From positions 64,001 to 128,000 of the forward strand of contig CAVTUQ010000008.1 in the NCBI GenBank assembly GCA_963737905.1: a stretch of 64,000 nt of DNA, written 5' to 3'. This document shows positions 7,197-29,034 of this stretch, in pieces; position 1 is the stretch's first letter, and every line of letters starts with the position of its first letter. The notes under the pieces were generated by a model, which saw nothing but the letters and a program-made list of their open reading frames with translations, was not told the DNA's origin and made no database searches. The translations under genes and the position numbers were made by a program. The DNA comes from an uncultured delta proteobacterium. Lineage in GTDB: Bacteria; Desulfobacterota; Binatia; UBA9968.

Positions 7197-8225
7197 TCAT
7201 TTCAGAATTTCTTTTGCTTTGGGGATGAGTTTCGGATCGAGCTTGAATATGTCTTTCACGTTCCGCTCGAGCTCCTCCCCGTCCAACGGGTTGATATCGA
7301 GCTTTGCCTTCTTGGCGTCAGCAAGAAACTCTGGGTCTTTCATGACGGCCATAAATGCCTTTCGCAATGTCATCAGCCGGTCTTTCGGCGTCCCGGGTGG
7401 AAGCAAATAGGGTCTGGCCGCTGGCCCTACGCTGTGAACCAACGAGCTGATCAGGTTTCGCGCTTCGTCGGTCTTGGCATAGCTCATCGCTAGTGGGACC
7501 TTGGAAAGTTCCGGGTGGGATTTCGCGGTGGTCTGTAAAACAATCTCCAGGTCGCCGCTTTTCAGCTCGTTAGGCCAGGTGGCCGTGAAGGACTGCCAAG
7601 CGTTGCACACTCCTTGAACTTCGCCGCCGTCGAACGCCAGCCTGACGTCCGCGGTCCCCTTATAACCCGAGACAATTTGCGCAGGAAGCCCGATCGTTGC
7701 GATGAGTACCTTGGGGATATCGTCCGTGGCCGAACCCGCGCCGACTCCGCCGAGTTTCACGATGGTCTTGGAGGCCATCCACTGGTCCATGCTCGAGATG
7801 CCCGTATTTTTTTTGGAAATGCCGATAACATAATCGTCCTGGGTCGGTACACCGATGTATTCGAATTTGGCTGCGTCGAACTCGATGCCAGGCTTGCCCA
7901 ATAGTTGCTGTAAGAAGAGTCCGCCGATAAAATGTCCGATGGTCAGTCCATCCGGTTTGGCTACGTTGTACATATAATTCGCCGAAATGAGAAATCCGGC
8001 CCCCGGCATATTTTCCACGACAAAGGTCGGATTCCCAGGGATGTGCTTTCCCATGTGCCGTGCGATAGTGCGAGAGTAGGTATCATAACCGCCGCCCGCA
8101 GACGCCCCGACGATAATCCTGACCGTCTTGCCTTTGTAAAAGGAGTCTTGTGCTTTTGCCGGGTTGGGGAACAAAAGCAATACGAAAGAAAAAACGGTCA
8201 CTAGACGGGTGAGAACTTGAGTCAT
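7197..8225 (-). CDS. Bug/TctC family tripartite tricarboxylate transporter substrate-binding protein
   Basis: Signal peptide; GGGYDTYSR, VVENMPGAG, KPDGLTI, GYKGTADVRLA. Confidence 0.9.
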   Translation of the reverse strand: MTQVLTRLVTVFSFVLLLFPNPAKAQDSFYKGKTVRIIVGASAGGGYDTYSRTIARHMGKHIPGNPTFVVENMPGAGFLISANYMYNVAKPDGLTIGHFIGGLFLQQLLGKPGIEFDAAKFEYIGVPTQDDYVIGISKKNTGISSMDQWMASKTIVKLGGVGAGSATDDIPKVLIATIGLPAQIVSGYKGTADVRLAFDGGEVQGVCNAWQSFTATWPNELKSGDLEIVLQTTAKSHPELSKVPLAMSYAKTDEARNLISSLVHSVGPAARPYLLPPGTPKDRLMTLRKAFMAVMKDPEFLADAKKAKLDINPLDGEELERNVKDIFKLDPKLIPKAKEILK

Positions 8226-8267: not shown

Positions 8268-9290
8268 CTACTTCAATATTTCCTTAAGCTGGTTCACCAG
8301 ACGCGGGTCCATCTTGAAGAGGTTGGCGACGATTATTTCTACCTCTTCCCCGGTTAGCGGATCCGTATCCAGTTTTGATTTCTTCGCATCCGCGACGAAT
8401 TCGCTATCCTGGAGGACTTCCACGAAAGCCTTGCGCAACATCTGCACTCGATCCTTAGGCGTTCCCGGCGCTACCGCGTATAATCGGGTGACCGCGGCTG
8501 GGTCATGAGCACCGAATTTGAGTAGCTGCCGCCCGTTTTCGTTCGGCGCATAGTCGATGGCGTTCGGCACTTTGGCCAATTCTGGATGGGGCTTGGCATT
8601 CACCTGTAGGACAATCGCCACGTTGCCGGAGTCGAGTCCCTGACGCCAGATCGATTTAATGGACTCCCACTGCCAGCAGCCACCCGCGACTTCACCTGCT
8701 TCGGCGGCGAGGCGAATCTCGGCGGTTCCTTTGTAGCCGGCCACGAGCTGGATCGGTAAATTCAGAGCGGCCTGTAAAATCTTCGCCGTATTATAAGTGG
8801 TGTCCCCCGGCGCAACCCCGCCCAGCTTGACTGGAGTCTTCGAATTCTTGAGCGCGTCAAAGCTCGGAATCCCGCTTGCTTTGGTAAATGCGCACGCCAC
8901 GTTGTCCTGGGTTGGGCTGCCAAGATACTCGAATTTGCGCGCGTCGAATTCAATCCCGGGTTTGCCGATGACCTGGTTAATCACCTGATTGCCGTGAAAA
9001 TTGAGGATAGTCAGGCCGTCTGGTTTGGCGATCTTGTAAACATGATTGGCTGCCACAAGGCTGGCCGCACCTGTCATGTTTTCCACGACGACGCTCGGAT
9101 TTCCCGGAAGATGGTGGCCGAGATGGCGGCCGATCACGCGCGAATAGGTGTCAAAGCCGCCCCCCGGGGAAAAACCTACAATAAGTTTGATCGCTTTGCC
9201 CTCATAGAAAGGGGCGGCGCTGTAGACCGAGGGAACAAATATCCAGCTCAGAGCGATAACAAAATAAGCCCGTTTCAATCGTCTAAACAT
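8268..9290 (-). CDS. Bug/TctC family substrate-binding protein (tandem paralog)
   Basis: Signal peptide; GGGFDTYSR, VVENMTGA, KPDGLTI, GYKGTAEIRLA. Confidence 0.9.
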   Translation of the reverse strand: MFRRLKRAYFVIALSWIFVPSVYSAAPFYEGKAIKLIVGFSPGGGFDTYSRVIGRHLGHHLPGNPSVVVENMTGAASLVAANHVYKIAKPDGLTILNFHGNQVINQVIGKPGIEFDARKFEYLGSPTQDNVACAFTKASGIPSFDALKNSKTPVKLGGVAPGDTTYNTAKILQAALNLPIQLVAGYKGTAEIRLAAEAGEVAGGCWQWESIKSIWRQGLDSGNVAIVLQVNAKPHPELAKVPNAIDYAPNENGRQLLKFGAHDPAAVTRLYAVAPGTPKDRVQMLRKAFVEVLQDSEFVADAKKSKLDTDPLTGEEVEIIVANLFKMDPRLVNQLKEILK

Positions 9291-9364
9291 CTCTACGAGA
9301 TCCCCTTCCGGAAACTCAGCCGGTGTTTGTTAGATCGCTATTAACTATAAATCAAGACACGCTG

Positions 9365-10156
9365 TCAACGGTCGCTCAGCAGAAGCGCTCGCAACTCTTC
9401 TTCCCACGAACGGCTGCCGCCAGCGTCCCATTGGCAATGAAGATCACGGATTTGTCCCGATGCAGTGAACTTCGCTAGCTCTCCAAGAGCCTCGCTGAGA
9501 ATCTCTTCCTGCTTTCGGCGGTCTCCGGGGCGGCCAAAGGTGCGACCAACGGGATGATCGACAAAAACGGCCCGCGGAGGCGGGACTTTGGCCATGATAT
9601 CTAAAGCCGTTCCAATGACCAGAGTCGGGATGTCATGGCTTTCGATGAAATGGGCGATGAGACCCACGGTCTCATGGCAGAAGGGTCAATAGGGCACGAG
9701 CAGGGCAAGGTCAACGTCCGCTTGCTTCAGCTCCCCAACAATCGCCGGGGCGAGTTCGGTTTCCACTTCTTGATGCCGCCGGATACCGCCCATAAACGAA
9801 ACGTGAATGGGGGACAAGCTCCCCACGATTTGCTTTGCAGCGAGATTTGCCAAAGCGGCCATCGGGAAAACGATTTCGGGATTGTGCCGCGGCACCGGAC
9901 CAATGCGCGAATGGTGATCAATCACAATCTCGCTTGCCTCGGAATCGGACGGAATGAGCCGGTAGCTCAGGTCTTCGGCCGGCGCAAAGGGTTCCTGACG
10001 GTTGAGACGCAAAGCCGCGCTCGTCAAAAGCGCGACGCGTGACTGGTTCACTGGCTTCTTTACCGCGCACCACGACCGTTTCGATGGCGCGACCAAAACC
10101 CGAGGCGGCTTAGGAGCCGATGATTGAGCCATGATGGGTAGATATTCCAGAGCCAT
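9365..10156 (-). CDS. PrdB/GrdB-like selenoprotein (glycine/proline reductase selenoprotein B family), 263 aa, Sec157 encoded by UGA at 9686-9688
   Basis: The two ORFs are in the same frame across one TGA: VDLALLVPY-U-PFCHETVGLIAHFIESHDIPT (UxxC motif); SECIS-like hairpin follows the UGA. Confidence 0.88.
9657..9675 (-). promoter_or_regulatory. Putative bacterial SECIS element
   Basis: mRNA reads UGA-CCCUUCUGCC-AUGAGACC-GUG-GGUCUCAU: perfect 8-bp stem, G-starting loop 18 nt after the UGA. Confidence 0.75.
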
Positions 10157-10294
10157 GGGTGGGTTATCCTTTTTTCATGGAAAATTCGTTTGGTGGGCAC
10201 GATAGAGTCCTAATATTGTACGCGGATATCGGAAGTCAACCTTCGGGTGGGCTGAGTGCTTTGTGAATGGGGATGTGGTAAGCAAGAAACACCT

Positions 10295-10986
10295 ATGGTT
10301 GATGTCGCTGCCAACTACCATAAGATTATCGAGCGAATTGGCGAGGCAGCGCTAAGAGCCGGCCGAAATCCACAAGCAATCAAGCTTTTGGCTGCAGGAA
10401 AATCTCAAAGCATCGAGCTGATACAGGCAGCGATTGCGGTGGGAGTGAGGTCATCGGCGAGAACTACGTGCAGGAGGCGGAGAGTAAAAGGCAAGTCATT
10501 TCAGAGATCGTCGAATGGCATTTGATCGGGCACCTTCAGCGCAACAAAGCAAGGGCAGCGATTCAGATATTCGATCTGATTCAATCGCTGGACAGCGCTG
10601 CCTTAGCTATGGAACTCGAAAAAGCGGGAAGAAAGAATGGAAAGACGATTTGTACGTTTATCGAAGTCAACCTTGGCGACGAACAGTCGAAGTCAGGCAT
10701 CGGACAAGACAAAGTTGCGGAGCTTTTGAAAAGGGTGAGCGACTTATCGCATGTTAAAGTACAGGGATTGATGGCTGTTCCGCCGTTTAAAGAAAATCCC
10801 GAAGAGGTGCGTCCCTTTTTTCGCGCGTTGAAAGATCTCCAGTCGGAGCTGGAGTGCTTGACCATTCCCAATGTCAGCCTCCATGAACTGTCTATGGGAA
10901 TGACCCACGATTATCCCGTCGCCGTCGAAGAAGGCGCAACCATCGTGCGCATCGGCACCGCTCTATTTGGCCCGAGGAAGACATAG
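10295..10986 (+). CDS. yggS: PLP homeostasis protein YggS/PlsC (one frameshift near 10450)
   Basis: N-part RAGRNPQAIKLLAAGKSQ; then (I)GENYVQEA, WHLIGHLQRNK, ELSMGMTHDY, VRIGTALFG in another frame. Confidence 0.9.
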
Positions 10987-14343: not shown

Positions 14344-14420
14344 CGGGGCGTAGCGCAGCCTGGTAGCGCACCTGCCTTGGGCGCAGGGGGTCGGAAGTTC
14401 AAATCTTCTCGCCCCGACCA
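14344..14420 (+). tRNA. tRNA-Pro(TGG)
   Basis: Cloverleaf CGGGGCG/CGCCCCG, anticodon arm CCTGC-CTTGGGC-GCAGG, CCA. Confidence 0.96.
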
Positions 14421-14425
14421 GATTT

Positions 14426-14490
14426 ACAGTCAGCAGTGGACAGTAACCAGTGAACAGTTGGGGCGACTGTTTTCTGTTCACTGCTAGCTT
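14426..14490. repeat. Fold-back element of NNNCAGT heptamer repeats
   Basis: CAGT at a 7-nt period (14427, 14434, 14441, 14448, 14455), then inverted ACTGTTT TCTGTTC ACTGCTA. Confidence 0.7.
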
Positions 14491-14497
14491 TTGAGTT

Positions 14498-14574
14498 GCG
14501 CCAGTAGCTCAGCTGGATAGAGCAACGGCCTTCTAAGCCGTAGGTCAGGGGTTCGAATCCCTTCTGGCGCGCCA
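14498..14574 (+). tRNA. tRNA-Arg(TCT)
   Basis: GCGCCAG/CTGGCGC, ACGGC-CTTCTAA-GCCGT, CCA. Confidence 0.96.
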
Positions 14575-14592
14575 CCGTGGGTTTTTCGATGT

Positions 14593-14669
14593 GGTGAGTG
14601 TAGCTCAACGGTTAGAGCACTGGACTGTGGCTCCAGGGGTTGAGGGTTCAAATCCCTTCACTCACCCCA
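14593..14669 (+). tRNA. tRNA-His(GTG), with encoded G-1
   Basis: G-GTGAGTG/CACTCAC-C, CTGGA-CTGTGGC-TCCAG, CCA. Confidence 0.96.
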
Positions 14670-14682
14670 AGCTATTTCGTCT

Positions 14683-14740
14683 GAGGATAGACGATCGAAT
14701 CGACGATCACGATCTTCGATCCTCTGTATTCGATGCTCGA
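14683..14740. repeat. Fold-back element of GAGGATN-type heptamer repeats
   Basis: GAGGATA GACGATC ... GATCTTC GATCCTC TGTATTC GATGCTC; same family as 4527-4591. Confidence 0.6.
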
Positions 14741-14750
14741 TTTGGCGCAT

Positions 14751-14826
<76 letters not shown>

Positions 14827-16006: not shown

Positions 16007-16090
16007 GCGAGAGTGGCGGAACTGGCAGACGCACTAGACTTAGGATCTAGCGGGTAACCCGTGGGGGTTCGAGTCCCCCCTCTCGCACCA
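16007..16090 (+). tRNA. tRNA-Leu(TAG)
   Basis: GCGAGAG/CTCTCGC, CTAGA-CTTAGGA-TCTAG, long variable arm, CCA. Confidence 0.96.
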
Positions 16091-22420: not shown

Positions 22421-22495
22421 GGGCGGTTAGCTCAGCGGGAGAGCATCGGCCTTACAAGCCGGGGGTCACAGGTTCAAATCCTGTACCGCCCACCA
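22421..22495 (+). tRNA. tRNA-Val(TAC)
   Basis: GGGCGGT/ACCGCCC, anticodon loop CTTACAA, CCA. Confidence 0.96.
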
Positions 22496-22516
22496 GACGG
22501 TTCGTCGCACAGTATC

Positions 22517-22593
22517 GGGGTCGTAGTTCAGCTGGTTAGAACGCCGGCCTGTCACGCCGGAGGTCGCGAGTTCGAGTCTCGTCGGCCCCGCCA
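22517..22593 (+). tRNA. tRNA-Asp(GTC)
   Basis: GGGGTCG/CGGCCCC, CCGGC-CTGTCAC-GCCGG, CCA. Confidence 0.96.
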
Positions 22594-26983: not shown

Positions 26984-27058
26984 GCTGGCGTAGCTCAACG
27001 GTAGAGCAGCTGATTTGTAATCAGCAGGTTGTAGGTTCAAGTCCTATCGCCAGCTCCA
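26984..27058 (+). tRNA. tRNA-Thr(TGT)
   Basis: GCTGGCG/CGCCAGC, GCTGA-TTTGTAA-TCAGC, CCA. Confidence 0.96.
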
Positions 27059-27151
27059 GACAGATTAATTGTCATGGTGTTGAGATATACAGAACGGCGA
27101 TCGCTCGTTGGAAGCACGGGGCAAGGGATAGTGCAGTTTTTAGAGAGAAGA

Positions 27152-27236
<85 letters not shown>

Positions 27237-27245
27237 TTTTTGTTT

Positions 27246-27321
27246 GCGGGAATAGCTCAGTTGGTAGAGCGCGAGCCTTCCAAGCTCGGGGTCGCGGGTT
27301 CGAGTCCCGTTTCCCGCTCCA
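27246..27321 (+). tRNA. tRNA-Gly(TCC)
   Basis: GCGGGAA/TTCCCGC, CGAGC-CTTCCAA-GCTCG, CCA. Confidence 0.96.
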
Positions 27322-27410
27322 ATTTGCGCATGACTGTGATGGCGGATAGCGGATGGCTGGCCTCTTTGTGGAGAAATTTAGGCCGTAGGCTATGGCCCGT
27401 TGACAGGTAT

Positions 27411-27483
27411 GCCCAGGTAGCTCAGTCGGTAGAGCACGTCCTTGGTAAGGACGAGGTCAGCGGTTCAATCCCGCTCCTGGGCT
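27411..27483 (+). tRNA. tRNA-Thr(GGT), no encoded CCA
   Basis: GCCCAGG/CCTGGGC, CGTCC-TTGGTAA-GGACG, followed by TTTT. Confidence 0.94.
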
Positions 27484-28956: not shown

Positions 28957-29034
28957 GGGTCAGTAGCTCCAATTGGCTAGAGCGCCGGACTCCAAATCCG
29001 GTTGTTGCAGGTTCGAGTCCTGCCTGACCCGCCA
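28957..29034 (+). tRNA. tRNA-Trp(CCA)
   Basis: GGGTCAG/CTGACCC, CCGGA-CTCCAAA-TCCGG, CCA. Confidence 0.96.

Follow-up and report, generated by a model that had tools for sequence, protein, structure and literature searches.

A probable selenocysteine codon within a PrdB-like gene of an uncultured Binatia bacterium

Introduction

Does the TGA that interrupts a minus-strand reading frame in this DNA end a gene, or does it encode selenocysteine (Sec)? The locus lies in a 64,000-nucleotide stretch from an uncultured bacterium of the Binatia (the window, to which coordinates refer unless another contig is named). The table 11 open reading frame (ORF) list cuts it into two pieces, 9686-10156 (156 aa) and 9365-9667 (100 aa). 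The original prediction was that the two pieces are one gene, 263 aa long with Sec at position 157, and re-translation of the minus strand and comparison with the ORF list found every one of these details to be correct. In bacteria, a SECIS element is a stem-loop located just 3' of the UGA with a G in its apical loop, the rule given in the description of bSECISearch. We examined the locus for conservation of the TGA, for a stem-loop of this kind, and for the genes of Sec incorporation. We conclude, with a probability of about 0.9, that positions 9365-10156 of the minus strand are a single intact Sec-encoding gene and that its product is a PrdB-like selenoprotein of the PrdB/GrdB superfamily.

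Results

One reading frame crosses the TGA

When TGA is translated as U, a single minus-strand frame of 263 codons runs from an ATG at 10156 to a terminal TGA. The in-frame TGA is codon 157, in the context LVPY-U-PFCHETVGLI. The features of the gene are as follows.

9365..10156, minus strand: the whole PrdB-like selenoprotein gene, 263 codons plus a TGA stop at 9365-9367; delimited by the TIGR04483 match, the N-terminus and the AlphaFold2 model
9686..9688, minus strand: in-frame TGA, codon 157, probably read as Sec; orthologues keep the TGA and distant homologues have Cys
9677..9679, minus strand: codon for Cys160 (TGC), the putative resolving Cys of U-x-x-C; C-x-x-C in 76/110 representatives, and the model helix begins at 160
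9657..9675, minus strand: SECIS-like hairpin, stem AUGAGACC/GGUCUCAU with a GUG triloop; 92.4% paired, with covariation across 24 sites

Both ends of the frame are supported by comparison with orthologues. The N-terminus, MALEYLPIMAQ, is conserved among them. At the other end, 12/12 orthologues also terminate in TGA, and the second TGA is a true stop because the residues beyond it are not conserved in orthologues (including loci L024-L034).

Relatives keep the TGA or encode Cys in its place

We searched the genome of the window together with 40 others of the same order, and 23 of these 41 genomes have a match. Matches were taken as orthologue-level at E<=1e-69, where they are 44-100% identical, and all 18 of these contain an in-frame TGA. 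The same is true of all seven paralogue matches, which are only 28-36% identical. For 12 orthologue loci that we extracted (47-73% identical), the TGA is at the same aligned place in every one and the frame is open on both sides, with the motif P-[YF]-U-P-[FY]-C-H-E-T-V around it. Across orthologues and paralogues, the TGA occupies the same aligned position in 24 of the 25 loci examined. One 28% identical locus (L059, G013:C116) showed no P-x-U-x-x-[CS] site by motif pattern and was omitted from the hairpin alignment described below. Sequencing error is excluded as the source of the TGA because independent genomes have kept it. In an even sample of 151 genomes from the phylum, 43 had a match at E<=1e-20, and 54/54 matches contain one TGA, its presence being counted irrespective of position.

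An exhaustive HMMER search returned 945 representatives at E<=0.001. When the best 150 of these 945 were aligned to the query, column 157 was occupied in 110: by Cys in 85, Ser in nine, Gly in seven, Trp in four and another residue in five. The C-x-x-C form of the motif is present in 76/110 of these distant representatives, and full-length Cys homologues of 250-310 aa span the TGA site. The original prediction expected homologues to have Cys or Sec at this position, and the TGA in 12/12 orthologue loci and the Cys in 85/110 distant representatives agree with that expectation.

Close relatives are stored differently in the protein database. Of the best 120 of 811 matches, 119 are 148-197 aa long and cover 56-59% of the query. 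In the sole long entry among these 120, W stands for the internal TGA and likewise for the terminal one, and since that stop is converted too, the W is a mark of the code chosen by the gene caller. Close full-length Cys forms were sought with residues 150-263 only; this search gave two matches, the long W entry and one 148-aa piece, neither of which is a Cys form. A pattern search of genome contigs for related loci gave 40 pattern matches, none of them confirmed; one pattern crossed the Sec site as Cys.

The part of the protein encoded after the TGA is conserved. In an alignment of 58 family members, E172, G175, T178, R195 and other C-terminal residues are conserved, and the first three of these are at least 90% conserved. 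The consensus of the 58 members is C-P-x-C-H-Q-T-x-G-L-x-A-R-x-x-E-x-x-G-I-P-T. It matches the active-site signature that had been recognized in the sequence, (U/C)xxC followed by H...L.A...E..GIPT.

A covarying hairpin follows the TGA

The hairpin AUGAGACC-GUG-GGUCUCAU is a perfect 8-bp stem closed by a 3-nt loop that begins with G. The stem begins 10 nt past the UGA and the loop 19 nt past it. Its length, loop and distance from the UGA are as first described, and comparison with relatives now adds that the structure is kept, with covariation, in 24 sites. By itself the fold is only weakly unusual: a 71-nt segment has a minimum free energy of -18.7 kcal/mol (z = -1.79), a stability that 13 of 200 shuffles equal or exceed. 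An Rfam scan of 9000-10500 at E<=10 matched nothing at the hairpin and gave only two chance matches at other places. It is the comparative evidence, not the stand-alone fold, that lifts the hairpin above chance.

We aligned 24 homologous sites (23 distinct) from orthologues and paralogues, leaving out L059. The eight pairs are formed in 92.4% of cells, a figure that drops to 80.2% in shuffles and, with the partner strand slid, to 28.8-42.4%. Changes on both sides of the stem occur in 4/8 pairs (19 cells), although they separate two or three clades and so represent few independent events. Neither the observed pairing nor the covariation score was matched in any of 500 shuffles. The 18 orthologue sites have GAGACC/GGUCUC, some with A replacing the closing G; the paralogue stems are CGGUCC/GGACUG in five cases and CGCUCC/GGAGUG in one, in an unchanged register. 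All 24 aligned sites have a GUN triloop.

The stem lies within conserved codons, and part of its conservation derives from the protein. Synonymous codon choice within the stem is also frozen: GAG is used in 18/18 sites, ACC in 17/18, GGT for 11/11 Gly codons and CTC in 17/18. Genome-wide, GGT accounts for 19% of the codons used for Gly and CTC for 26% of those used for Leu. Codon choice varies freely for the flanking Pro, Phe/Tyr, Cys, His and Val residues.

The genome encodes selA, selB and selD

Does the organism have the machinery for Sec? The genome encodes selA (606.9 bits), selB (409.8 bits) and selD (381.4 bits), all above curated cut-offs. They form a selD-selB-selA cluster (G000:C29:71024-75669), in which selD itself has one TGA. 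The assembly comprises 46 contigs and is 87.49% complete, with 6.69% contamination.

At default thresholds, ARAGORN found 44 tRNAs in this 87.49%-complete assembly, none of them for Sec. The Rfam model RF01852 scored at best 46.6 bits in the assembly, on a tRNA-Leu, with 150 of 852 candidates scored. Rfam searches of the selABD loci found no tRNA-Sec gene adjoining the cluster, and a profile of the tRNA-Sec genes of five relatives gave a tRNA-Ser as its best match in the assembly (E=0.0039). Neither nhmmer nor blastn with those genes detected a tRNA-Sec there. The C10 region that is syntenic with the selC locus of a same-genus relative has no selC. Relaxing ARAGORN to -ps95 also revealed no tRNA-Sec in the assembly; at -ps90 a single one of the 222 calls, 75 nt long and on C30, was 'SeC', and the thousands of calls at -ps85 and -ps80 were treated as noise, which is all that the lowered thresholds gave.

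All five relatives tested, one of them of the same genus, encode selC (73.1-77.1 bits), and their five tRNA-Sec genes are nearly identical. Because the assembly is incomplete and 5/5 relatives have the gene, we read the absence of selC as a putative assembly gap. Of the four sel genes that had been proposed as a check on the Sec reading, then, selA, selB and selD were found above their cut-offs, and selC was not found in the 87.5%-complete assembly. As a side observation, 12 of the 44 tRNA genes of the assembly are clustered on the plus strand of the window (14344-14826, 16007-16090, 22421-22593, 26984-27483 and 28957-29034).

Elsewhere in the genome TGA is an ordinary stop. It ends 667 of 1598 long ORFs, as well as the selenoprotein gene itself, and these counts indicate that the code is not reassigned. 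Further TGA-bearing genes in the genome are selD, one grdA-like gene and three GrdB-like genes. The grdA-like gene has one TGA and lies at G000:C27:45666-46100. The three GrdB-like genes, also in the window's own genome (C34:78004-79500, C9:239276-240800 and C38:700-2173), carry an in-frame TGA as codon 347-349; the motif around it, T-[ST]-T-U-G-T-x-T-R-S-G, differs from the UxxC listed for GrdB in having no Cys three residues past Sec. Each of them follows a GrdG/GrdE-like gene. Two more GrdB-like copies (C28 and C38:9803) look frame-disrupted.

The protein is PrdB-like but scores below the PrdB cut-off

The best family match of the read-through protein is TIGR04483, the D-proline reductase PrdB model (E=1.3e-34). 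The alignment pairs residues 26-240 with profile positions 17-231 of 238, running across the TGA, and its score is 119.7 bits versus a cut-off of 300. The GrdF, GrdH and GrdB models align only to residues 90-226, at 11.9-18.5 bits versus cut-offs of 65-800; TIGR01918, for example, gives 14.4 bits versus 65.45. A Pfam search of the read-through protein returned nothing at E<=1. Nevertheless, GRDB PF07355 is matched by 45 members of the 58-member family alignment, which comprises orthologues together with full-length homologues that are distant, and superfamily membership therefore holds despite the protein's own sub-cut-off score. This sequence evidence places the protein in the selenoprotein B superfamily, closest to PrdB although no PrdB equivalog. 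The original prediction of a PrdB/GrdB-like protein thus stands for the PrdB-like identity, with U157-P-F-C160 as its motif, and fails if it is taken to mean PrdB proper, given the score and the lack of any PrdA-type gene among those found.

The AlphaFold2 model, built from the 58-member alignment, is one domain that continues across the TGA (pLDDT 96.8, pTM 0.94). In this model a strand spans residues 150-154, Sec157 is in the loop that follows, and a helix starts at Cys160. The conserved charged residues of the 58-member alignment include D62, R66, D92, E172 and R195, which would suit a small carboxylate or amino-acid ligand.

Searches of solved structures in the PDB by sequence gave only HdrB, which was not significant (E=0.69-0.71). 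Residues 123-198 (window about 9563-9790), which contain V-P-Y-C-P-F-C-H when Sec is written as Cys, weakly and non-significantly resemble the C-x-x-C end of the HdrB cysteine-rich domain. Foldseek against the PDB found nothing at E<=0.001, with a best value of 8.1e-3 and a TM score of 0.26. VIA-align wide gave Z scores of at most 7.7, to LacI-type and Rossmann-like domains; this is usual background, and we rejected these as specific fold relatives.

TctC-like genes lie downstream and no PrdA-like gene is adjacent

Two tandem paralogous genes for putative secreted binding proteins follow the selenoprotein gene on the same strand.

8268..9290, minus strand: TctC-like paralogue, 340 aa, with a signal-peptide-like N-terminus; about 50% identical to orthologues of the 7197-8225 gene, with no Pfam or NCBIfam match of its own
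7197..8225, minus strand: second TctC-like (tripartite tricarboxylate transporter receptor) binding-protein gene; PF03401, E=3.1e-7, 30.6 bits

The selenoprotein stop is 74 nt from the first of these genes, which is followed after 42 nt by the second, and no terminator-like site was found between the selenoprotein gene and the TctC-like genes. A TctC-like gene is directly downstream in 6/11 orthologue loci, all of one family; one of the other five loci is cut by a contig end. The selenoprotein gene and the TctC-like gene possibly share an operon. No TctA or TctB membrane component was found among the scanned neighbours.

A YggS-like gene is divergent upstream in 4/11 orthologue loci. In the window, this gene encodes a PLP-binding protein (Ala_racemase_N; 10295-10986, plus strand) and is divided between two frames by a shift that lies a short way upstream of 10441. 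Locus L024 has an unbroken orthologue of 238 aa, and the split in the window is either an assembly indel or a pseudogene. Other neighbours vary by family. An Amidohydro_2 gene (directly upstream) and genes for TPP enzymes are neighbours in G025, and two genus g25 genomes have, convergent to the orthologue, a gene of the ornithine cyclodeaminase/mu-crystallin family (L071 6769-7719; L073 about 8753-9680). G025 and G037 each have a bicupin gene no more than 3.5 kb away.

Is there a partner of the PrdA type? No PrdA-like gene was found beside any orthologue locus whose neighbours were scanned, and no PF09338 (GrdE/PrdA family) match is present on the window's contig. The genome has five PF09338 genes, all on other contigs, where they adjoin its own GrdB-like genes and score best on GrdG/FarE-type models. 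The PrdA model TIGR04480 gives them at most 24.5 bits versus a cut-off of 700. A PrdA-type gene was thus not found in the 87.49%-complete assembly, which does not prove its absence from the organism.

Discussion

Why is Sec the preferred reading of this UGA? If the TGA were a true stop, the locus would be a pseudogene, a product of sequencing or assembly error, or two small genes, and there are observations of the sort that would then be expected: gene callers split the locus, at least one apparent frameshift is present nearby in the assembly (in the YggS-like gene), and selC was not found. Yet the same TGA, with the frame open on both sides, is kept in 12/12 orthologues that have diverged to 47-73% identity, all 54 phylum-sample matches carry one TGA, and homologues have Cys at column 157. 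Moreover, the conservation of E172, G175, T178 and R195 is unexpected of a dead 3' half. We regard a true stop as exceedingly unlikely. It is also highly unlikely that the UGA is read through as Trp, Cys or Gly, by near-cognate suppression or under a reassigned code. The missing selC, the one database entry with W at both TGAs and the W in 4/110 representatives at column 157 would fit such a reading, but TGA ends 667/1598 long ORFs and the gene itself, and the W readings that also convert the terminal stop reflect the caller's code choice. Sec is indicated instead by the complete selA-selB-selD set and by the covarying hairpin, which lies at SECIS distance. The claim that this UGA is recoded, and is neither a stop nor an error, is therefore upheld by the conserved TGA, the Cys homologues, the hairpin and the three sel genes together.

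A further explanation accepts Sec and concerns the identity of the protein. Could it be the genuine PrdB of a D-proline reductase, with its pyruvoyl-bearing partner PrdA encoded elsewhere in the genome? The best family match is to the PrdB model over nearly its full length, JGI labels many relatives 'D-proline reductase (dithiol) PrdB', and the genome has five PF09338 proteins. The score, however, is far under the equivalog cut-off, the five PF09338 genes pair with GrdB-like genes of their own and barely register on TIGR04480, and the scanned orthologue loci have no PrdA-like gene beside them. We consider a genuine PrdB very unlikely, and favor a PrdB-like selenoprotein that is distinct from it.

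How might this PrdB-like selenoprotein be made, and what might it do? We propose that SelB and Sec-tRNA decode UGA157 as selenocysteine and that the hairpin 10 nt downstream, embedded in the H-E-T-V-G-L-I codons, guides this decoding. The product would be a 263-residue cytoplasmic protein with a Rossmann-like alpha/beta domain. As modeled, Sec157 and Cys160 would form a U-x-x-C redox pair, placed in the loop that connects a beta strand to the N-terminal end of a helix. Function is assigned here by homology. By analogy with PrdB and GrdB, Sec may attack a carbon of the bound substrate, a small carboxylate or amino acid, after which Cys160 would resolve the selenoether to a selenenyl-sulfide that a thiol or NAD(P)H-linked system could re-reduce. 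The protein would stand alone, rather than serve a classical PrdA/PrdB D-proline reductase as its PrdB subunit, and the TctC-type solute-binding proteins usually encoded downstream in its own family may supply the substrate.

A broader proposal can be made for the clade, and we offer it tentatively because we find it rather doubtful as a whole. The clade might be a self-contained Sec/Cys reductase that has no pyruvoyl PrdA/GrdE partner, always uses Sec in this phylum, is encoded upstream of TctC-type genes in 6/11 loci, and acts on a substrate that a tripartite tricarboxylate-type system brings into the cell. This substrate is perhaps a cyclic imino or amino acid, a suggestion that comes from the ornithine cyclodeaminase/mu-crystallin neighbor in one genus. 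If the proposal were true, non-fermenting soil bacteria would be using the selenoprotein B fold for a new enzymatic activity.

The value of the result is mainly as an annotation fix. Among the best 120 of 811 database matches, 119 are fragments that break off at the Sec codon; NCBI names its entries 'hypothetical protein', and the clade exceeds the cut-off of no curated NCBIfam or Pfam model. A dedicated clade model would restore many full-length selenoproteins in lineages rich in metagenome-assembled genomes (MAGs). Additionally, the gene adds to the evidence of heavy selenium use in this lineage, since selD, a grdA-like gene, three GrdB-like genes and the PrdB-like gene all carry a TGA in one genome. 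The hairpin also provides a clean, strongly covarying example of a SECIS element.

How does the gene compare with known systems? Its resemblance to GrdB, GrdF and GrdH (PF07355) is confined to residues 90-226, which align weakly, around the Sec site, to the C-terminal third of models of 431-435 positions. Unlike those proteins, it does not have their N-terminal part of roughly 280 residues, and no GrdE-like gene adjoins it. It is also distinct from the genome's own GrdB-like genes, which are at separate loci and have the Sec motif T-U-G-T.

PrdB (TIGR04483), of the type found in Clostridium sticklandii and Clostridioides difficile, is a closer match. The two are similar in length (263 aa versus a 238-position profile), can be aligned nearly throughout, and share recoding of TGA and a Sec in U-x-x-C, the motif with which the PrdB family is listed in the available text of PMC13188914 and PMC9312934. 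Unlike PrdB, the protein falls below the 300-bit cut-off, has no adjacent or detectable gene for a PrdA proprotein, and is encoded in a context of TctC-type binding proteins rather than a prd operon. Nor is its host a Stickland-fermenting Clostridium; the nearest named relatives in the database are MAGs labeled Candidatus Binatia and Methylomirabilota. For the latter phylum, the accessible part of PMC13188914 describes a MAG with 63 predicted selenoprotein genes.

By description, the gene also resembles PrdB homologues reported from environmental surveys and non-clostridial genomes. Such homologues have been among the commonest bacterial selenoprotein families since 2005, according to the portions available of PMC1088965 and PMC2398784. 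The same portions count 42 PrdB-homologue selenoprotein genes in the Sargasso Sea (PMC1088965) and 235 PrdB-homologue genes with 110 Cys homologues in the GOS data (PMC2398784), and the text available of PMC1794560 places a 'proline reductase' selenoprotein in Anaeromyxobacter and Geobacter uraniumreducens. No function is given for such homologues in the available text of these three papers. We found no literature under the name 'PrdB-like', although the supplementary tables of selenoproteome papers may list the clade. The new part of our finding is accordingly modest: a sub-cut-off clade that is uniformly Sec in the sampled genomes, truncated in databases, and often linked to TctC-type genes. 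Like the Sargasso and GOS homologues as described in the accessible text, the gene is PrdB-related, has UxxC, is TGA-encoded and occurs outside Stickland fermenters. PrdB-related selenoproteins are, on the strength of that text, already known as a family, and this gene is a further member.
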